DNA of 64,000 bases from a bacterium (GTDB lineage: Bacteria; CG2-30-53-67). Made by a program: the position numbers and the translations under genes. The notes under the pieces were generated by a model. It ran no database searches and was not told the DNA's origin. It saw nothing but the letters and a program-made list of their open reading frames with translations. Below are positions 38,723-64,000 of the stretch, piece by piece (position 1 is the first letter of the stretch; each line of letters starts with the position of its first letter). Where the stretch lies: the NCBI GenBank assembly GCA_919901565.1, contig CAKKPE010000107.1, positions 7,091 through 71,090 of the forward strand, given 5' to 3'.

Positions 38723-39153
38723 CCGCAGGGAAAGGATCTCTTGAAAGAGAAAGGGCTGGATCGCTATCTGTGAGTCAGATCATCGGCATCGGAATCGATA
38801 TCATAGAAATTAAACGGATCGAGAAGGCCATGCAAAAGGGTTCTGACCGTTTCCGTATCCGGATCTTTACGGACCGTGAGGTGGAGTACTGCGAGAAAAA
38901 GAGGAAAAAGTATCAGCATTATGCTGCACGTTTTGCCGCCAAGGAGGCGGCCATGAAGGCACTGGGCACCGGGTTGCGCAAAGGGATCGGTTTCCCTGAG
39001 ATTGAACTGATCAACAAGGTGTCCGGGAAACCGGAATTGTTCTTTTATGGCAAGGCCCGGGAGATTTTAGACGCCTCTGGAGGGAGGGAGGTGTCTGTTT
39101 CGGTTTCTCATTCCAACGATTACGCCGTAGCCACGGTGGTACTCAGTGGGTAA
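38719..39153 (+). CDS. acpS: Holo-[acyl-carrier-protein] synthase
   Basis: [15 protein letters not shown]… is the AcpS fold. The ATG at 38719 overlaps the gap stop as ATGA. A GTG at 38770 is a possible alternative start. Confidence 0.75.
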
Positions 39154-40501
39154 TCTTGTTCCTGATTGCTTTTCCCAGGTCTGATGATCTGCGCCGAGAT
39201 GGCTGATCCACAAAGACGACGCTCTTTTCTTCCGACATAACCGCCAGCATTCTTTTATGTAACGAAGCCTGCTCCCTGAGGATTCTTTCAGTCAGCGGTA
39301 TTTCGATGAACTTTTTTATGTTACGCTTCAGAGGTCTTGCTCCATAACGCGGATCGGCCCCTTCGCTGATCACAAAATTGATGACAGCTTTGCTGAACCG
39401 GAGATGTATTTTCATTTCGTTGAGTTTCAACTGCAGCTTTGCAAGCTGTAGTTGAACAATCCTTCGGGTTTCTTTGGGTCCGAGCGGATTGAAACAGATG
39501 ATCTCGTCGATGCGGTTCAGAAATTCAGGGCGGAAGATCTTCTCAAGGGATTTCAGGGTCTCACGTCTTACCATTTCATGGTTCATGACGTCCTGTCTCG
39601 TGAATCCTACGGCGCTTTTCATCTTCTCGATTCCTTTAACACCTGCGTTGCTCGTGAGAATGATCACGGCATCATGGAAGGGAATTCTTCTCCCTTTATT
39701 GTCGGTCAGGGTTCCCTCGTCCATGACTTGAAGAAGCAGGTTGTGGACCATGGGGTTTGCCTTTTCAATCTCATCGAAGAGCACCACATTTCCCGGCCGC
39801 TTCAGCATCTGTTCGGTAAAACTCCCTCCATCATCGTATCCCACATACCCTGGCGGAGCGCCGATCAGTTTGGCATATTCATGGGGCTGTGAGAATTCCG
39901 AGCAGTCCACCCGGACCATATTTTTCTCATCACCGGTCAAGAACTCGGCCAGGGCCTTGGCCAGTTCGGTCTTGCCTACGCCGGTCTGCCCGATGAAAAG
40001 GAAACATCCCACAGGTCTGTTCGAATCCCTGATTCCGACTTTTGCGCTTTTTATGCACTGGGCAATCTGGTCGATGGCCTCATCCTGTCCTACGACCCTC
40101 TTTTTTAATGCGGCATCGATCCCATCTATTTCCCGGATGCGAGTCCAAAGGTCTTTCTTTTCTGTGGAGAGCAGCAAAGATGGCCGCTCTTTTTCCTGTA
40201 CCGGGATATTGACATTGTATATATTCAAAGACGGGTTGACCTTTATGCACATCCGATAGAGTTCTTCGATGGCGCTTTCCACGTCGACTTCTCGATCATA
40301 TTCACTATGGATCAGGGATCGGACCTTTTCATCGTACTCAGGGATAGACGCCTTTACAACAAGCTCCTGGTATGATCGCTTATCCCTCATGTCAGCGTCC
40401 TGAAAAAACACGTCCATTTCTTCCTGAGCGAGTTCCCTGACATTGATGAAGCAGTCGATCATCGGGCAGTATCTCATTTTGAGACTTGATTTGGACTGCA
40501 T
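39143..40501 (-). CDS. Stand-alone Clp/Hsp100 D2-type AAA+ ATPase (ClpB_D2-small C-terminal domain) with a unique N-terminal region of about 170 aa
   Basis: VVGQDEAIDQIAQCI…FLFIGQTGVGKTELAKALA…VLFDEIEKA…sensor-2 region. AGGGAG ribosome-binding site before the ATG at 40501. The 3' end overlaps acpS convergently by 11 nt. Confidence 0.7.
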   Translation of the reverse strand: MQSKSSLKMRYCPMIDCFINVRELAQEEMDVFFQDADMRDKRSYQELVVKASIPEYDEKVRSLIHSEYDREVDVESAIEELYRMCIKVNPSLNIYNVNIPVQEKERPSLLLSTEKKDLWTRIREIDGIDAALKKRVVGQDEAIDQIAQCIKSAKVGIRDSNRPVGCFLFIGQTGVGKTELAKALAEFLTGDEKNMVRVDCSEFSQPHEYAKLIGAPPGYVGYDDGGSFTEQMLKRPGNVVLFDEIEKANPMVHNLLLQVMDEGTLTDNKGRRIPFHDAVIILTSNAGVKGIEKMKSAVGFTRQDVMNHEMVRRETLKSLEKIFRPEFLNRIDEIICFNPLGPKETRRIVQLQLAKLQLKLNEMKIHLRFSKAVINFVISEGADPRYGARPLKRNIKKFIEIPLTERILREQASLHKRMLAVMSEEKSVVFVDQPSRRRSSDLGKAIRNKITH

Positions 40502-40798
40502 GGATGGATTCTCCCTAAGTAATAACCTCAAACAGGCACTATCCTGTTCCAACTATATTATCGGGTATTCTTGCCTGAAACTTGAGAGGATAAACGGCAG
40601 AGGCCGAAAAGCAAAGATATGGCCTAAACTTAATTGGTCAGAAGGGCGGATAACCGGAAGGAATAATGATAAAGAGATGAACTGTCCATAACATGGCTAT
40701 GAAACCTCAAAAATTCACACAGGCCGTTGCTTTCCATGAAAAATAATCCCAAAGGGGGGTTGCTATTTTAATTAACCGTGACTATATTTGCAAGTTCA

Positions 40799-42943: not shown

Positions 42944-43510
42944 TTAGGAGAGAAAGGCCTCACGCTCATCCGGGGTGATCTCCACCTCTTCAGAGGCCTT
43001 GCCTTTTCGGAAAGGGTGCAGGCCCGCCATCTCATTCACATTCGAGTCCTGTTTTTTCAGTTCCGTGTGGAACCTTTCCATATAGAGAAATTTCTGGCCA
43101 AGAACTTCAAAACAGCGATATTGATAGAGAAGATGGATGTGGAGAGGGGCTGCCCTGAGAAATCTTTTCATAAGCAAAGGGAATTCCGGGTAGATCAGGG
43201 CAGCCCCGGGGGGGACGGTTTTTCTTAAATCAAGGCTCGGAAACAACTGCCGAAGTACGGAGAGGTTTTTTGTAAACCAGTCCAACTGGGCATCGGCATT
43301 CAACAGGGCGTTTTCATCGGGCTTGATGTCTGCAAAGATGAGCAGGGGCCTCTCCTCGTTATCCTTCGCCACCAGATCGATCAAGGGGAACTCTTCATCC
43401 CCGATTGGACCGCCAAGGATTTCAACCCCCTCTTCAATCATGGATGCAGTGTTTTTGATGAGTTCTATCAGGTCCTTTTTTTTATTCAGTTGGATGTGTT
43501 TAAAGGACAT
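42944..43510 (-). CDS. Hypothetical protein (188 aa), third gene of the ParA-CBM48 cluster
   Basis: Start overlaps the upstream gene's stop by 11 nt. No recognisable domain. Confidence 0.5.
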   Translation of the reverse strand: MSFKHIQLNKKKDLIELIKNTASMIEEGVEILGGPIGDEEFPLIDLVAKDNEERPLLIFADIKPDENALLNADAQLDWFTKNLSVLRQLFPSLDLRKTVPPGAALIYPEFPLLMKRFLRAAPLHIHLLYQYRCFEVLGQKFLYMERFHTELKKQDSNVNEMAGLHPFRKGKASEEVEITPDEREAFLS

Positions 43511-44390
43511 GAGCCTTCTCTATGGAACGTAGTCTCTGGTCATGATCATCTATGATCAATCTGCTGATATTATAAATATGCCTTCGCATTTCAGAGGTGG
43601 ACCATTTCAAGACCAATGGAACCCCTTCAGCCATGGACTTTCCTATTTCTTCACATTTCTGAATGAAGGCGTAGCTGAGCAGATCCTTTTGAAGGAACCG
43701 TTTTGTATTTCCGGCCATTCGGGAAAATGCATCGGATGCATCCTGCTCGCCTTTTTCTGATAAAACAATCAGGCCGATCTGAATCTGCCGGGCTTTTTGA
43801 TGGAGAGCCTTGATCACAGAGTAGGATTCAAGCATGCCTGTCCGGTCTGTCGGGGCAATGACCATGAAGAGGGATATCTGGCGGAGCATGGCCCCCAGTT
43901 CTTCCAAGCGATTGTATGGGATGTGAAAAATAATAAAATCAAATTTCTGGTACTCTTCAGGCCAGGGATAACGATTGCCATTCTGATGGATATCCCTGTA
44001 AGACAGGAGATGACTGAGAAAGGGGGTGCGGTAGGTCGTCCTGACGCCCATGGGGGCATGGATCAGGATGGGTTCGGCAGCGTTTTCAATGTCCATCAGC
44101 CCCATCAGCCGGGTTACATTCAAATTTCCCGGATCATCGTCCACCACCAGTACCCGATACCCTTGCCTGGCCAACTCGATGGAAATGTTGCAGATGGCGA
44201 ATATCCCCATGGTGTCCATAGGCCCGCCCGTGATGCCGATGGTTTGGATCTCAGGCATGGCCTGACGCTTTGCATCAAACTCAGGCACGCTGCGATCAAG
44301 AGGAATGTCGGTCACAGTTTTTGAGGATTCAGCAGAGAAGAATACATCGGATATTTCCTCGAGCCCTCTTCCCAACCTCCTCCCTTTCAT
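43500..44390 (-). CDS. Degenerate ParA/MinD-fold protein (Walker A lysines lost: ITGGPMDTMG) with an N-terminal ParB-like GRGL peptide (MKGRRLGRGLEEI); putative partner/adaptor of the upstream ParA-CBM48 ATPase
   Basis: AAGGAG ribosome-binding site. The N-terminus resembles the ParA-stimulating N-peptide of ParB/Spo0J (GLGRGLxAL). The body aligns with MinD/ParA topology (…YRVLVVDDDP…) but lacks the KGGxGKT P-loop. Confidence 0.55.
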   Translation of the reverse strand: MKGRRLGRGLEEISDVFFSAESSKTVTDIPLDRSVPEFDAKRQAMPEIQTIGITGGPMDTMGIFAICNISIELARQGYRVLVVDDDPGNLNVTRLMGLMDIENAAEPILIHAPMGVRTTYRTPFLSHLLSYRDIHQNGNRYPWPEEYQKFDFIIFHIPYNRLEELGAMLRQISLFMVIAPTDRTGMLESYSVIKALHQKARQIQIGLIVLSEKGEQDASDAFSRMAGNTKRFLQKDLLSYAFIQKCEEIGKSMAEGVPLVLKWSTSEMRRHIYNISRLIIDDHDQRLRSIEKAHVL

Positions 44391-44465
44391 GGGATCTCCT
44401 TATCATGCTCAGATGGACATGAATGTGTGTCCTGAAAAATATTGTGTATCTAACGGCCTTTATGG

Positions 44466-45611
44466 TTATTGGGACGGGCGCTCTGTCTTTATATCCAATG
44501 CGGGACCACTTTCTTCTTGATGAGATCGTTCCCAGTAAGGTACTTCCACAACGGAGTCCACTCCGCCGAACTCGTTGACGATGTAGTTAGGGTTGTGCTG
44601 ATCCTCCTTCCACTCGCCATCCGCGATGAATTTATAATGGTATTTTCCAGGCGGCAGGTGGATCACTTTTTTCCAGGTCCCATCCGGTTGTTTATGGAGT
44701 TCATAAGACGGATCCGGCGTCCAGTTATTAAAGTCTCCGACCAGTTTCAGGGATTGCACATTGGAGGCCTTGTAGGAGAAGAGAATACCGTTTGTCACCG
44801 GGCAAGGGCCCAGTATTTGGGCTGTCTGCTTCTGCACCTCTTTTTCTGGAATTTGAATCACCTCTTGCGTAAGGGCAAGAAAGTCTTTATATCCGACACA
44901 ATTTTTATCAAACTCGGTAATGGGAGAGCCGAAACTGGCCGCTTCTTTGAGGCGGATATTGAAATGGATAACCGTCTGAAAAGTATTTTCCTTGAAGTGT
45001 TTCTTGACCTCCTCAAAGATCTCGCTGGAAAGTCTTGTCCTTTTATCGAACATGGTGAGCAGGATATGGATCTGGATGTCGTGACCCAGCTTTTCTGAAA
45101 ACATCTGAATGGTTTCAGTCAGCTTTCCAAGACCGTGTAGTGAAAAAAAGCTCGGTTCAACGGGGATGATGACGTCCTGGGATGCCGTCAATGCATTGAA
45201 AGACAATAGTCCCACAGAAGGAGGACAGTCGATCAGGATATAGTCATATTCCCTCTTCAGGCCCTGGATGGCCTGCAGAAGCCTGGTTTCTCTCCCGGGG
45301 GTATTGGCCAGTTTTTGTTCAAAGGCGGACAGAACAATATTGGAAGGAATCAGGTCAAAATTTTCCCCGGCTGGGATGATAATATCTTCCAGTATGGGTC
45401 TATCCACCTCATCAATTGAGAGGAGGACATCATAAAGACAGATTTCAAGCTCTTTTGGCTTGATATTGAGACCTAAAGAAGCGTGTGACTGGGGGTCCAT
45501 ATCAATCAGTAAGACCCTTTTTCCCAGGGAAGCAAGAGATGCTGAAAGATTGATGGCCGTTGTTGTCTTGCCGCAGCCCCCTTTTTGATTTACAATCGAT
45601 ATTGTTTTCAT
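44466..45611 (-). CDS. ParA/MinD-family ATPase fused to a C-terminal CBM48 / AMPK-beta glycogen-binding domain
   Basis: Deviant Walker A NQKGGCGKTTTAINL, DMDPQ, and the rest of the ParA fold to about residue 250. The C-terminus LKLVGDFNNWTPDPSYELHKQPDGTWKKVIHLPPGKYHYKFIADGEWKEDQHNP matches the CBM48/AMPKbeta-GBD pattern (FNNW…LPxGxHxYKFxxDGxW). Confidence 0.75.
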   Translation of the reverse strand: MKTISIVNQKGGCGKTTTAINLSASLASLGKRVLLIDMDPQSHASLGLNIKPKELEICLYDVLLSIDEVDRPILEDIIIPAGENFDLIPSNIVLSAFEQKLANTPGRETRLLQAIQGLKREYDYILIDCPPSVGLLSFNALTASQDVIIPVEPSFFSLHGLGKLTETIQMFSEKLGHDIQIHILLTMFDKRTRLSSEIFEEVKKHFKENTFQTVIHFNIRLKEAASFGSPITEFDKNCVGYKDFLALTQEVIQIPEKEVQKQTAQILGPCPVTNGILFSYKASNVQSLKLVGDFNNWTPDPSYELHKQPDGTWKKVIHLPPGKYHYKFIADGEWKEDQHNPNYIVNEFGGVDSVVEVPYWERSHQEESGPALDIKTERPSQ

Positions 45612-45919
45612 AGTGCGCTCCTTTCAGGATGGCCTTCGCTCTGATATGGGAATACGATCTTCTTATTGAAGCTCGTTAGCAGTTCAGAACCTGTCATGGC
45701 CTTTTTCCGCGTCACCTCCTCATTAATCAATCTTATGCAGGAAAAGTTTCACACGGTGTCCTATTTTGTATTCATAGAGAGCATGTACACTATATATAGT
45801 ATAGAAAGATAGACAAGATTATAAAGAATGTCAAGAAAAATTATCAATTTTTTGACAAAAAAAGATTAGCCCTTCTTGGATTCTCAGAAAGGCGGCGTAT
45901 GGCCGGAAGGGGATGATGC

Positions 45920-57826: not shown

Positions 57827-61026
<3,200 letters not shown>

Positions 61027-61030
<4 letters not shown>

Positions 61031-64000
61031 CCTTCACCTTCAATGATTGACCAGACGCGGTGATAGCTCTCGCCTCGGTCGCCAAGCGCGGTTCTCCACG
61101 TGTTCACGTTCGCCGCCCGAAGCTTGGCTCGCACCTCGTTCAGGGGTTCAGACGCGCCCACCCCCAACGACTTGGCCAACGGCGCGGCAGCGGTGCGCGG
61201 TACGCCCAGAAGTCGCAGAGCAACGGCCTCATCCGAGTTCACGCCGTAGTACACACGCGCAGGCAGATTTCGAAGAACGCGCTGGTCCTCCGCGGACATC
61301 GCGTCGAAGGAGTCGCCGAGGGTGAGCGACTGCAGGGCGGCCAAGCCCCACGAGGCCGTCTGCGTGAGCCGACCGAAGACGCTTCTGCAGCAGCGGGTCA
61401 TCGCCGCAACCGGATCCCCGGCGCCCGTGCTCTCCTCGTCGTCACCCGACTTCTTCGAGAAGTATTCCGTCGCCATTTCGGTGAGAGGGCGTCCCTGCAC
61501 CCAGTCGCAGATGATCCGTGCGAGCATGTCGCCGTTAGGTTGCAAGCCGCCTGTAACCTCCTTGAGTGGCTCCCGCAGCTCTGGCACCTGGAGCAAGACG
61601 CCCATCATGCGCTGAAGATCGTCTCGGCGGGTGCCGAACAGCTCAGATGACCATACCCCGCTTGTCAGGTTTGCCGCGTTCACGCGGACCAGAGTGTTGC
61701 TAACGGATTCCCATGAGAAGCCGGTGGCGTCGACGAGCTTCAGCGGCTTGCCCTTTATGCGCTCGGCGTAGTTGTAGACGCCCTGCACCAAGCTATCGGC
61801 CCAGCCCTTGTGGCTCTTCCGCAGCGCCTGAAAGCCAAGCGTTCCGCGAAGGATCTGCTCGACCTCTGCGGCGAAGCGCTCGTGGTTGCCTAACTGCCGA
61901 TAGGTATGCGCGAGGTACTGCACAAACGACGACCAACCTGGCTGCCACGCGAGCGTCTCGAGTTGGAGCAGCTTTCCTTCAGCATCGGCGCGCTGCACCA
62001 TGTCGATCAGCGTCGAGTTCAAGGCACCGACGGACCGTCCGATGAACTCCTTTAGCCTCTCCGCTTTTGCGTCATTGTGACCGGCGAGCGCGACGATGCC
62101 GAGGTCGCCTTGATCCACGCGACCCGCACGACCTGCGATGTTCCAGAAATCCTCGGGCGGCATGTCTTGCCCATACGGATACTGGTGACTCGCGAAGACG
62201 ACGCCGGAGACCGGAAAGTTCACGCCCTGCGCGATGGTCGTCGTCGCGACGAGCACGCTCAGCTTCGATTGCTCCGTCAGCCACTCGACAAGCGTTCTAG
62301 TGTCCTCGGAGAGCCCGGAGTGATGAACTCCAACGCCGTACTCGAGCAGGGCTATCAACGGAAAGTCCTGCCCCATTTCGTCGGCAAGGAACCGTCGAAT
62401 GTGGACTAGGTCATCGTTGCCCACAGACCGGCGGTTCTCATCAACCTTGAGCGTCCCAGCAACTCCCCAGCTACTTCCCGGCGTGTCAACCAGAACAATG
62501 ACCGTTCCCCGCTGATGGAGGACCTGCGCTACCGCTGCTGCGAGCTTTCCGGGCGATCCAGAAACCGCGGACCATGAGAGCCCCAGCGGACGCCGCTCTC
62601 CAACGTCCAGCGCCTCTGGCACCTCAATGGTGTTCCGCGTCGTGTGCTGGGTGACAAGCCGCACCCCGAAGTCACCGCGCTTCTGGCCCTTCTGGGGCCG
62701 TGCGATAGCGATAACGCGATCGTTGGGACTCCAGTCAACACCGAGTTCGATGTTCTTGTTGCTGTCAGGCGACAGCCACCGCGCGATCTCAGCGGCGTTG
62801 TGAATGAACGGCGTGAGCAGCAGGAACTGCGCGTATCGACATTCCCGGTTGATCGTGGCAAGCAGCAGCTCCAACTTCAGGCCGCGCGCTTGGGATGCGA
62901 GCCCGTGTGCCTCGTCGACGACCACAAGGGTCAACGGTCGACCGATCTTTTCCTCCCAGCCGCCACGAAGCATGAGATCTAGCTTCTCTGGTGTCGTGAC
63001 GAGGATGAGAAACTGTCGTCCGGCATCCGTGTCGGTCAGCATGCCGGCTTCGAGCCCATCGATATCGAGAGCGGGGCTTACCTTTTCGACGATGCTGCCG
63101 AGGACGGCCAAGTCCCGTCGAAGGCGAAGCGTGAGCTGGTTAACGAGTGCACGGGTCGGCGCGAGGTACGCGACCCAACCGCGCTCTTGGTCGAACTGGT
63201 TGAGCGCCTGGAGAATGCGGAATTCCGCGATGAACGTCTTTCCGCTCGACGTCGGAAGGCTCACGACGACGGAGCGATGACCCGAGCCAAGCAGTCCCTT
63301 CTCGCGCAGGGTCCGTCGCTGGGGGGGGAGCATCTCGAAGATCGGCTGCTGCCGGTCGCGCGAAACCAACGACTCCACGAACCGCGTTACGCGACTATTC
63401 ACTGCCCGGGTCACAGTCCAGATGCTGTTATCGACGAGGACCCGAGCGGTTCGAGCGAGCAGACGAGCTAGAGATTCGCGCTCCATGTGTTGACCACGCC
63501 CGGCAGCGCCGATAGCGCGGTCAAATTGCGCCTCAAGCTGTTCCCGCACGTCGTAGTGACCGTCCACCGAGCCTTGAGTGAGATAAACGCCGAGAATCTC
63601 GGCAGCCTTCGCGAGGTGGTACTCGGTGATGAGCTCCCACGCGGGCCGCGCGTCCCTTCGCGCTTCAGCCTGGGCGATGAATTCTGGTTCGTGTTCGCGC
63701 TGGTCGGTACGTAGTGCTGCCACGCGCTGCTGTACCAGGTCCAGATCCCCCCAACCCTGCTTTCGGAAGAGGCGCAACCAGATGTCGAGGATGCAGGACC
63801 AGACGCGGATACCCCAGTCTTCCGAATCCAGAGGGAGTTGAGGCAGATCCTTTTCGATGAGAAGACGACGAACATCGGCCCCACGGTCACCCAGTACGCC
63901 GAGGGCACCGAGGCGCACGAGCCATTCCGCTGCCTCAATGGGCGCTTCGGGACACGTCAGCGAGCGTGCAACTTGGAATGCATCCGTGGCAGTGGCTTGA
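61027..64000 (-). CDS. Large SF2 DEAH-box helicase (over 990 aa), partial with its N-terminus beyond the window end; stop overlaps the hsdR start as ATGA
   Basis: Motif I LPTSSGKT, motif II VVVDEAH, motif [12 protein letters not shown]. The frame stays open from 63918 through 64000. The track's first Met is a GTG and is not the true start. Confidence 0.8.

Follow-up and report, generated by a model that had tools for sequence, protein, structure and literature searches.

The window, that is, the whole stretch of 64,000 nucleotides that we analyzed, contains three consecutive genes on the minus strand, whose products we call P1, P2, and P3. The three open reading frames were confirmed, and their coordinates, together with those of a promoter upstream of P1, are as follows.

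44466..45611, minus strand: P1, 381 aa, ParA-type ATPase fused to an AMPK-beta/CBM48 module
43500..44390, minus strand: P2, 296 aa, ParB-like peptide followed by an FlhG/MinD-like body
42944..43510, minus strand: P3, 188 aa, predicted NucS-like PD-(D/E)xK fold
45818..45847, minus strand: sigma-70-like promoter 5' of P1 (TTGATA, 18 nt, TATAAT; 11 of 12 matches)

Only 75 nt separate P1 from P2, and the P2 and P3 genes share 11 nt; the three genes, which share one strand, form one operon, as had been proposed. A GGAG ribosome-binding site, read directly from the sequence, precedes the ATG of P1. The original prediction also suggested that the operon might be under the control of the adjacent sigma-54 response regulator/histidine kinase pair. 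We rejected this control, as no -24/-12 element (TGGCAC-N5-TTGCW, up to 2 mismatches) was found in the 308 nt upstream of P1 (45612..45919), which instead contain the good sigma-70-like promoter listed above. Over the whole window and with the same tolerance, the sigma-54 pattern gave 15 matches, fewer than the 25.7 expected by chance. The regulator/kinase pair adjoins the cluster in one close relative (L003), the sole relative whose context was read. According to NCBIfam, the 10 neighboring genes encode housekeeping functions, the sigma-54 two-component pair, and a type I restriction subunit, and the housekeeping chromosomal context, with its core-genome synteny, is common to the window and L003. 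The intergenic regions harbor no centromere-like, iteron, or parS-like repeat arrays and gave just short, chance-like matches; the hairpin of the groEL terminator was the other match in this search.

ATPase domain and CBM48 module of P1

P1 had been described as a canonical ParA ATPase with a KGGCGKTT motif, ending in a domain of the AMPK-beta/CBM48 type, and our analysis bore out both halves of this description. The protein can be divided as follows.

44856..45611, minus strand: residues 1 to 252, Soj/ParA-type deviant Walker A ATPase (Pfam, match to Myxococcus xanthus ParA, Foldseek)
45564..45584, minus strand: KGGCGKT, the deviant Walker A motif
44805..44855, minus strand: residues 253 to 269, variable low-confidence linker (pLDDT below 50 at residues 259 to 265; unconserved in the family alignment)
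44541..44804, minus strand: residues 270 to 357, AMPK-beta-type CBM48 beta-sandwich (Pfam, 1z0n alignment, pLDDT 85 to 92, all-beta)
44466..44540, minus strand: residues 358 to 381 and stop codon, disordered, nonconserved tail (pLDDT 33 to 35)

The ATPase domain matched the Pfam families AAA_31 (2e-56) and CbiA (7e-22) and aligned over its whole length with the chromosomal ParA of M. xanthus (8ray; 2.5e-61 by sequence). Soj and ParA were its best Foldseek matches, with 42% identity to M. xanthus ParA in the Foldseek alignment. The signature and Walker residues K10, K15, D37, D39, and D128 are kept in 120 to 121 of 121 relatives, and the Cys within KGGCGKT is invariant. R191 is conserved in all 121 relatives, and R220, which aligns with the M. 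xanthus residue R238 involved in nonspecific DNA binding, is R or K in 110 of them. The DNA-binding arginine R189 of Soj was provisionally mapped onto P1 as well. The pocket of M. xanthus ParA that receives ParB (V116, L150, L152, L155, L187, L192) also appears largely preserved, with five of the six positions being hydrophobic in P1 (V133, L135, F138, M170, L175). By these comparisons, P1 carries a complete ATPase of the chromosomal ParA/Soj type.

The C-terminal module scored above threshold with two Pfam profiles, AMPK1_CBM (residues 286 to 357; 3e-12, 47.0 bits for a cut-off of 26.8) and CBM_48 (25.6 bits for a cut-off of 22.4). The last 126 aa alone matched the glycogen-binding domain of rat AMPK beta1 (1z0n) at 4e-8, and the structure prediction concurred, since residues 270 to 357 are all-beta and modeled with the high pLDDT given above. 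Most P1 homologues stop near residue 357. In AMPK beta1, W100, K126, and W133 touch the carbohydrate, and their mutation lowers glycogen binding (PMC2642990). In the 1z0n alignment these residues correspond to W297, K327, and W334 of P1; both tryptophans are kept in 121/121 relatives, and position 327 is K or R in all of them. Three minor sugar contacts differ between the window protein and AMPK beta1 (L146 to F348, T148 to G350, and N150 to D). Because of the above-threshold Pfam score, the alignment with beta1, and the retention of the sugar-contact residues in every relative, the module is genuine and looks functional. P1 resembles the AMPK beta glycogen-binding domain in fold and in its W100/K126/W133 equivalents but displays the module on a bacterial ParA, not on a kinase scaffold or a GH13 enzyme.

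Partner proteins and genomic distribution

We then analyzed the sequences of P2 and P3, which comprise the following segments.

44331..44390, minus strand: P2 residues 1 to 20, ParB-like ParA-binding peptide MKGRRLGRGLEEISDVFFSA (LGRGLEEIS..F.S), assigned from conservation and the ParB motif
44220..44330, minus strand: P2 residues 21 to 57, variable linker with no conserved column in 22 homologues
43536..44219, minus strand: P2 residues 58 to 285, FlhG/FleN/MinD-like, with degenerate Walker A and B motifs (profile against PDB, alignment)
43070..43510, minus strand: P3 residues 1 to 147, predicted NucS-like PD-(D/E)xK fold lacking the catalytic ExK (structure model)
42944..43015, minus strand: P3 residues 166 to 188 and stop codon, conserved C-terminus after a disordered stretch (motif FRxG...EVEITxEEREAFLS)

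P2 begins with MKGRRLGRGLEEISDVFFS, and all of its 22 homologues keep L6, G7, R8, G9, E12, S14, F17, and S19. The segment L6-G7-R8-G9-L10-E-E-I13 matches the ParB motif of M. xanthus (L11, R13, L15, L18), in agreement with the ParB/Spo0J-like peptide that the original prediction had recognized at this end. P2 is nevertheless not a ParB, because the likeness is confined to the peptide, and neither P2 nor P3 has a ParB match in Pfam. The loss of the P-loop lysines, noticed earlier as well, was evident: the Walker A position reads GGPMDTMG (versus GKGGxGKT), is variable across the 22 homologues, and is without lysine, and the Walker B aspartate is replaced by H156. Since these lysines and the aspartate are gone, we consider P2 to be a pseudo-ATPase. 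More distant homologues in two loci (L025 and L012) keep a Walker A motif, GKGVRGKT or GERVKGKS. The body of P2 had been assigned to a ParA/MinD-like fold; it is indeed MinD-like, but its nearest solved structures are FlhG (4rz2, 1.7e-18) and FleN (5j1j, 8.6e-14), not ParA, and the Pfam family CbiA was sub-threshold at 23.7 bits. When the P2 profile was iterated, it drifted into generic ParA proteins (133 matches by round 3), so that the first-round profile alone was used. FlhG also combines an N-terminal activator peptide, which activates FlhF, with a MinD-like domain. P2 differs from FlhG and FleN in the missing lysines of Walker A and aspartate of Walker B, in carrying a peptide that is ParB-like and not of the DQAxxLR type, and in the absence of a flagellar context at its locus.

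P3 had been reported to have no known domain. This still holds for Pfam and NCBIfam, in which P3 has no match, but not for its structure model, which gives a restriction endonuclease-like fold resembling NucS. The catalytic D45 is kept, and the position of ExK reads F59-A60-D61; a lysine occurs at position 61 in just 32 of 163 family members, the ExK being absent from the window protein and most of the family. P3 is thus predicted to contain a catalytically dead NucS-like PD-(D/E)xK domain. In comparison with the C-terminal nuclease domain of NucS/EndoMS (2vld), P3 lacks both the ExK and the NucS N-terminal domain and has an additional conserved C-terminal helix motif. In the model, residues 150 to 165 have pLDDT values below 50 and are followed by a helix at 180 to 187. 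F167 is invariant, conservation reaches at least 90% at R168, G170, E182, R183, A185, and F186, and a similar tail is found in homologues from Myxococcota and Omnitrophota.

At least 595 species-level genomes, belonging to more than 10 phyla, contain the ParA-CBM fusion. The best 80 of these at least 595 fusion loci are all metagenome-assembled, 79 of them matching through the CBM, and the close relatives of the fusion all come from uncultured organisms. The fusion defines a large, coherent, and widespread family. The fusion and the peptide occur far beyond chance, because PF16561 is found in 120/120 of the best P1 homologues and the peptide recurs across phyla.

Neighborhoods were counted in 84 related loci. 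The gene next to the fusion carries the peptide in 33 of them, and in 31 of these 33 the central peptide position is basic. The proteins that bear it are an FlhG-like protein, a NucS-like protein directly, a fusion of both, or a DUF4912 protein encoded beside a GH57 enzyme. Tepidisphaerales (class Phycisphaerae) have P2 and P3 as a single fused protein, and in Rokubacteria, Gemmatimonadales, and Acidobacteriota it is a P3-like protein that carries the peptide directly; P2 and P3 are probably two halves of one adaptor. The peptide is the one constant across the differing partner scaffolds and is portable. In 45/84 loci, no peptide-bearing, FlhG-like, or NucS-like partner lies nearby.

A connection with polyglucan metabolism emerged from the same loci. 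GH57 genes are located within 10 kb in 16/84 loci, in four distinct arrangements; DUF4912-GH57 pairs occur in L001, L009, L010, and L025; and a phosphoglucomutase gene is nearby in six Myxococcota-type loci. The related clusters had no flagellar, chemotaxis, or plasmid-partition context. No glycogen gene was detected in the 64-kb window by tblastn with GH57 and DUF4912 or, for the 10 neighboring genes, with NCBIfam.

A candidate system for positioning polyglucan particles

ParA/MinD systems are known for carboxysomes, chemoreceptor arrays, and plasmids. For bacterial glycogen granules, in contrast, next to nothing is known, to our knowledge, of how they are organized and inherited, and we know of no positioning system for polyglucan. 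In McdAB, PpfA-TlpT, and PomXYZ, a ParA-like ATPase is paired with a small partner of low conservation, which activates it through its N-terminal region, and large cytoplasmic cargos other than DNA are thereby distributed along the nucleoid. P1-P2-P3 follow this general logic of an ATPase plus an activating partner, and McdA (6non/6noo) is a weaker structural relative of P1. In known ParA systems, however, it is the partner protein, not the ATPase, that carries the cargo handle. Here the presumed cargo-binding domain forms part of the ATPase polypeptide, and the partners have no similarity to McdB. The likeness to chromosomal ParABS (8ray) extends to the signature lysine, the Walker motifs, the DNA-binding arginines, and most of the ParB-peptide pocket of P1, and to the LGRGL-type N-terminal motif that P2 shares with ParB. 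In contrast to ParABS, we found no ParB (CTPase/helix-turn-helix) gene in the window or the 84 loci (tblastn/blastp with a Spo0J query) and no parS-like repeats; moreover, P1 has the extra CBM48 and the invariant Cys in KGGCGKT, and the putative activating peptide is borne by unrelated scaffolds.

We propose, with about even confidence, that the operon encodes a ParA-type positioning module coupled to alpha-glucan (glycogen-like) particles. P1, a likely paralogue of the chromosomal ParA/Soj ATPase, would bind nucleoid DNA nonspecifically as an ATP-bound dimer and display two C-terminal CBM48 modules, each on a flexible linker; polyglucan granules would in this way become attached to the nucleoid. 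P2 and P3 may associate into a split adaptor, in which P2 would supply the ParB-derived peptide on a linker of about 35 residues, anchored to its catalytically dead FlhG-like body, and P3 would contribute the catalytically dead NucS-like domain with its conserved acidic C-terminal helix. The peptide would dock in the pocket that receives ParB, between the two subunits of the P1 dimer; this would stimulate ATP hydrolysis and release P1, and repeated cycles of binding and release could space and partition the granules, as with other ParA cargos. The original prediction knew of no described system of this kind, and we likewise found none in the searchable, subscription-free full-text literature. 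That this is the first dedicated positioning and inheritance system for bacterial glycogen granules, spread over more than 10 phyla, with a CBM-bearing ParA and a ParB-derived activating peptide on at least three unrelated scaffolds, is a possibility that we put forward more tentatively.

The ParA-CBM family offers a concrete, testable candidate for the organization and inheritance of glycogen granules. Its mechanics would be unusual: the ATPase would carry its own cargo-binding module, and a single short ParB-type peptide would have been transferred among partner proteins that are unrelated to one another. This peptide would define a minimal transferable handle for ParA activation. The invariant KGGCGKT together with a CBM, and LGRGLEDxSHLFLS, provide simple signatures for finding the system and its clients in any genome; the DUF4912 protein of L009 is a first example of a candidate client.

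Some observations weigh against positioning, namely, the window without a glycogen gene, the placement of the presumed cargo handle on the ATPase, the loci without a recognizable partner, and the three altered minor sugar contacts. The NucS-like fold of P3 also counts against it, as the model suggests binding to nucleic acid rather than to granules. As in AMPK, the CBM48 might instead sense glycogen or offer a docking point, so as to recruit or regulate the ATPase according to glycogen status; what is positioned or regulated would then be whatever P2/P3 binds, such as a DNA region or a protein complex. MinD has a C-terminal membrane anchor, and a C-terminal surface-binding module on an ATPase recalls it; the cargo of known ParA systems is determined by the partner protein, and the present partner has a nuclease-fold domain. 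The AMPK beta domain itself serves both as an anchor and as a regulatory sensor of glycogen (PMC2642990). We nevertheless find this reading unlikely: the conserved DNA-binding arginines of P1 argue that the nucleoid remains the surface, the DUF4912 partner variant beside GH57 points to glucan-associated partners, and nothing identifies another cargo. A beta-sandwich that serves as a protein-protein or other ligand module, binds no glucan in vivo, and belongs to a system unrelated to polyglucan would accord with the altered contacts and the lack of glycogen genes in the window. CBM48-like folds do serve protein interaction in AMPK beta and related proteins. Yet the two stacking tryptophans and the lysine (K or R at position 327) are invariant across phyla, and GH57 and DUF4912 neighbors accompany the 16 loci noted above, which make this reading very unlikely in our view.

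An atypical DNA partition system, in which P3 binds a DNA site like ParG or ParB, P2 provides the activating tail, and ParA-CBM segregates a chromosome region or an episome, seems distinctly unlikely. PD-(D/E)xK folds bind DNA, the P1 ATPase is nearest to chromosomal ParA, the P2 peptide is ParB-like, and in type Ib ParG, too, an activating N-terminal tail precedes a small, dimeric domain that binds DNA, a layout discussed in PMC12462528. Against these similarities stand intergenic regions free of iteron or parS-like arrays and the housekeeping chromosomal context in the window and L003, and DNA partition would leave the invariant sugar-binding site and the GH57 neighborhood unexplained. An anti-phage defense or mobile-element module, combining a P-loop ATPase and a nuclease-fold protein, is extremely improbable: P3 lacks the catalytic ExK, core-genome synteny is conserved, and no mobile-element genes adjoin the operon. 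PADLOC gave a trivial P-loop match for P1 alone (5e-6, residues 6 to 39) and none for P2 and P3, and on this negative result a defense system was rejected. Plasmid partition was rejected as well. The 12 listed PLSDB matches to P1 span only about residues 2 to 252, with no ParA-CBM fusion among them; two further records, outside these 12, reached a coverage of 80% or more in this search. The CBM alone matches three megaplasmid/chromid records; the one match inspected is outside any ParA open reading frame, just upstream of a large open reading frame that presumably encodes a glucanotransferase.

P1, a ParA ATPase carrying a predicted glycogen-binding module

An ORF check recovered three minus-strand ORFs at exactly the coordinates of the original prediction. 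In the metagenome-assembled genome that contains the window, NCBI annotates P1 as "AAA family ATPase" and both P2 and P3 as "hypothetical protein" (MEK6777212.1, MEK6777211.1, and MEK6777210.1, respectively).

45818..45847: sigma-70-like promoter of the operon, 11/12 positions matching
44466..45611, minus strand: P1, ParA-CBM48 fusion, 381 aa
43500..44390, minus strand: P2, 296 aa, starting 75 nt past the end of P1
42944..43510, minus strand: P3, 188 aa, overlapping P2 by 11 nt

The suggested sigma-54 regulation was not borne out, as there is no -24/-12 element 5' of P1 and the sigma-70-like promoter is found there instead. Directly downstream of this promoter, an 18-nt near-perfect palindrome (TACACTATATATAGTATA, plus strand, 45786..45803) could be an operator.

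P1 matched the Pfam profiles AAA_31 (2e-56) and CbiA (7e-22), and its ATPase domain aligned with Myxococcus xanthus ParA (8ray, 2.5e-61) and Thermus thermophilus Soj (4e-43). A Foldseek search with the AlphaFold2 model of P1 (pLDDT 82) gave a ranking that agreed with the order of the sequence matches. Judged from sequence and model, P1 is predicted to be a complete ParA, with chromosomal ParA/Soj proteins as its nearest kin. The signature lysine K10, the Walker A K15, D37, D39, and the Walker B D128 are essentially invariant among 121 family members, and R191, which we take to correspond to Soj R189 from our own alignment with a Soj sequence, is kept in all 121. R220, an R or K in 110/121 members, aligns with R238 of M. 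xanthus ParA; mutating that residue eliminates non-specific DNA binding (PMC12462528). The Walker A motif (KGGCGKT, residues 10 to 16, 45564..45584) has a cysteine, shared by 120/120 aligned relatives, where canonical ParA has a valine. This invariant cysteine marks the family, and the pattern NQKGGCGK by itself recovered mostly ParAs with a CBM in a genome scan.

The AlphaFold2 model of P1 is organized as follows.

Residues 1 to 252: ATPase
Residues ~253 to 269: low-confidence linker
Residues 270 to 357: confident beta-sandwich
C-terminal to the beta-sandwich: disordered tail

The proposed fusion of ParA to an AMPK-beta/CBM48 module was upheld by both Pfam CBM profiles, AMPK1_CBM scoring 47.0 bits (residues 286 to 357, 3e-12, curated cut-off 26.8) and CBM_48 scoring 25.6 bits (cut-off 22.4); PF16561 was present in 120/120 best database matches of P1. 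The C-terminal domain aligned with the glycogen-binding domain of rat AMPK beta1 (1z0n, 4e-8), in which W100, K126, W133, L146, and T148 contact carbohydrate and their mutation reduces glycogen binding (PMC2642990). The P1 counterparts are W297, K327, W334, F348, and G350. W297 and W334 occur in 121/121 family members each, the K327 position is K or R in 121/121, and the counterpart of beta1 N150 is mostly N (101 members), with D in 19.

The P2 and P3 proteins

The N terminus of P2, M-K-G-K-R-L-G-R-G-L-E-E-I-S-H-V-F-L-S, is near-invariant in 22 homologues and precedes ~35 variable residues. It agrees with the ParB-like peptide originally proposed, since L6, R8, L10, and I13 are in register with L11, R13, L15, and L18 of the ParA-binding motif of M. 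xanthus ParB (L11, R13, L15, L18, I19). Through the P1-8ray alignment, the M. xanthus ParA pocket residues V116, L150, L152, L155, L187, and L192 correspond to Q99, V133, L135, F138, M170, and L175 of P1, five of the six being still hydrophobic.

The body of P2, described as ParA/MinD-like, does have a MinD-type fold, but its closest matches are FlhG (4rz2, 1.7e-18) and FleN (5j1j, 8.6e-14). Its P-loop is degenerate, as had been noticed: the Walker A site is GGPMDTMG here and differs among homologues, and a histidine replaces the Walker B aspartate too. Distant homologues retain an intact deviant Walker A (GKGVRGKT in L025, 11089..11949; GERVKGKS in L012, 3339..4277), and the L025 protein is also above the Pfam CbiA threshold. 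These homologues indicate that P2 of the window has degenerated from an active ATPase, and some lineages may have a partner that is itself still active as a second ATPase.

P3 had no match in Pfam or NCBIfam, in line with the initial reading that it has no known domain. Its profile retrieved 357 clusters (E of 0.001 or better) from 1.84 billion representative proteins. We predict that P3 is a dead NucS-like domain. D45 is conserved among 163 family members, a K occupies the ExK lysine position in only 32/163, and the window protein has F59-A60-D61 there. A C-terminal motif, FRxG...EVEITxEEREAFLS, is conserved and preceded by a disordered stretch.

Distribution and partner arrangements

The P1 architecture is widespread, with at least 595 ParA-CBM loci in a scan that took a single genome for each species. 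The best 80 were all metagenome-assembled, matched through the CBM in 79 cases, and came from Omnitrophota, Planctomycetota, Myxococcota, Thermodesulfobacteriota, Zixibacteria, Rokubacteria, Gemmatimonadota, Acidobacteriota, Eisenbacteria, Margulisbacteria, Krumholzibacteriota, and others. We called ORFs in 84 loci including the window, grouped the neighbouring genes into clusters, and ran the P2 and P3 profiles against them. The gene next to ParA-CBM carried the peptide in 33/84 loci, with the consensus [KR][KR]-L-G-R-G-L-[EAS]-[DE]-[VI]-S-H-[LF]-F-L-S and a basic central position in 31 of the 33. A P3-like gene occurred in 25/84 loci and some partner (peptide, P2-like, or P3-like gene) in 39/84; a different conserved layout was found in 22/84, and neither in 23/84, some of which are truncated by contig ends. 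The peptide was found on several scaffolds.

Scaffold 1: peptide on an FlhG-like protein, then a separate NucS-like gene (window, L003, L001 and L009 [Omnitrophota], L010 [Thermodesulfobacteriota], L012, L025, L051)
Scaffold 2: peptide directly on the NucS-like protein, a two-gene system (L016, L019, L036, L038, L061, L075; Rokubacteria, Gemmatimonadales, and Acidobacteriota, including Vicinamibacterales)
Scaffold 3: FlhG-like and NucS-like parts in a single polypeptide of 468 to 498 aa (Tepidisphaerales L049, L081)
Scaffold 4: L009 13725..15608, plus strand, DUF4912 protein (Pfam 8e-38) with the peptide LGKGLEDISTLFLS (Omnitrophota)

Myxococcota loci have the FlhG-like plus separate NucS-like arrangement with a variant peptide that lacks the LGRG prefix, and peptide-headed NucS-like proteins make up 22/149 of the best P3-family representatives. 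The L009 DUF4912 protein, which has long K/A-rich repeats and a Glucodextran_B-like C terminus, directly precedes a GH57 branching-type enzyme and is a possible second client of the ATPase. From the P2-P3 fusion and the movement of the peptide from one scaffold to another, P2 and P3 probably act together, and the peptide is probably their functional connection to the ATPase. In Deltaproteobacteria and Desulfobacteraceae, short proteins of ~105 to 125 aa downstream of ParA-CBM (L004 5506..5883, L053 11250..11564) combine the peptide with an unrelated small domain, without an FlhG-like or NucS-like part, and add a further scaffold.

The alternative layout, in 22 Omnitrophota/Planctomycetales loci (including L014, L015, L017, L020, L021, L023, L024, L027, and L029), consists of GH57, a ~190-aa membrane protein with no Pfam match, ParA-CBM, a DUF4870 membrane protein, and a small protein of ~130 aa with an extremely basic K/R/P-rich N terminus and a small beta-barrel. 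No gene with the LxxISHLFLS peptide was found in these 22 loci. An alginate-export-like porin and PPDK are often upstream.

Genomic neighbourhood and proposed function

GH57 (representative Pfam match, 3e-67) was located within 10 kb of ParA-CBM in 16/84 loci, in four arrangements: directly upstream and codirectional, downstream with DUF4912 and codirectional (L001, L009), downstream in the opposite orientation (L010), or 8 to 9 kb upstream (L025). By a rough estimate, a genome with one or two GH57 genes would have one in a given 20-kb stretch by chance ~1% of the time. Six Myxococcota-type loci have a phosphoglucomutase ~4.5 kb from ParA-CBM. No GH57, DUF4912, or other glycogen genes were found in the 64-kb window by tblastn with GH57 and DUF4912 and by NCBIfam annotation of 10 neighbouring genes.

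The most economical reading of the operon is a ParAB-derived positioning module, and we rate the system as a variant within the ParA/MinD positioning kind. P1 would act like ParA, dimerizing in an ATP-dependent manner, binding the nucleoid, and being activated by a ParB-type peptide; in addition, it would hold alpha-glucan particles through the two CBM48 modules of the dimer, and the P2-P3 adaptor would deliver the activating peptide and so set turnover. We give positioning of glucan granules by this module an even chance. The predicted nuclease fold of P3 leaves room for two less likely readings, namely, a DNA-linked cargo and a glycogen-sensing role of the CBM.

Other assignments were rejected. 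Plasmid partition was set aside as no ParA-CBM fusion was among the PLSDB matches listed, and a canonical ParABS system as ParB was absent from the window and the 84 loci, in a search with a Spo0J sequence, and there were no centromere-like repeats in the intergenic regions. A defence system was dismissed on a negative PADLOC result (P-loop-level matches for P1 only). No description of a ParA-CBM system was found in the open full-text literature (8 million texts).

The operon's neighbours in the window are GroES/GroEL, a ClpB-like ATPase, GAPDH, TypA, an AtoC/AtoS-like sigma-54 two-component pair, and RNase G; synteny is the same in L003, where the P1 homologue shares 65% identity. Adjoining groES-groEL, likewise in L003, is a ClpB/ClpA D2-like single-ring AAA+ protein (39143..40552, minus strand, 469 aa) with a ~140-aa N-terminal domain without assignment. 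The block at 57827..63918 (minus strand), which contains an HsdR type I restriction subunit (1e-174) and a Hel308-like helicase, has a GC content of 0.62 to 0.64 versus 0.45 to 0.55 elsewhere in the window and is probably a horizontally acquired island.
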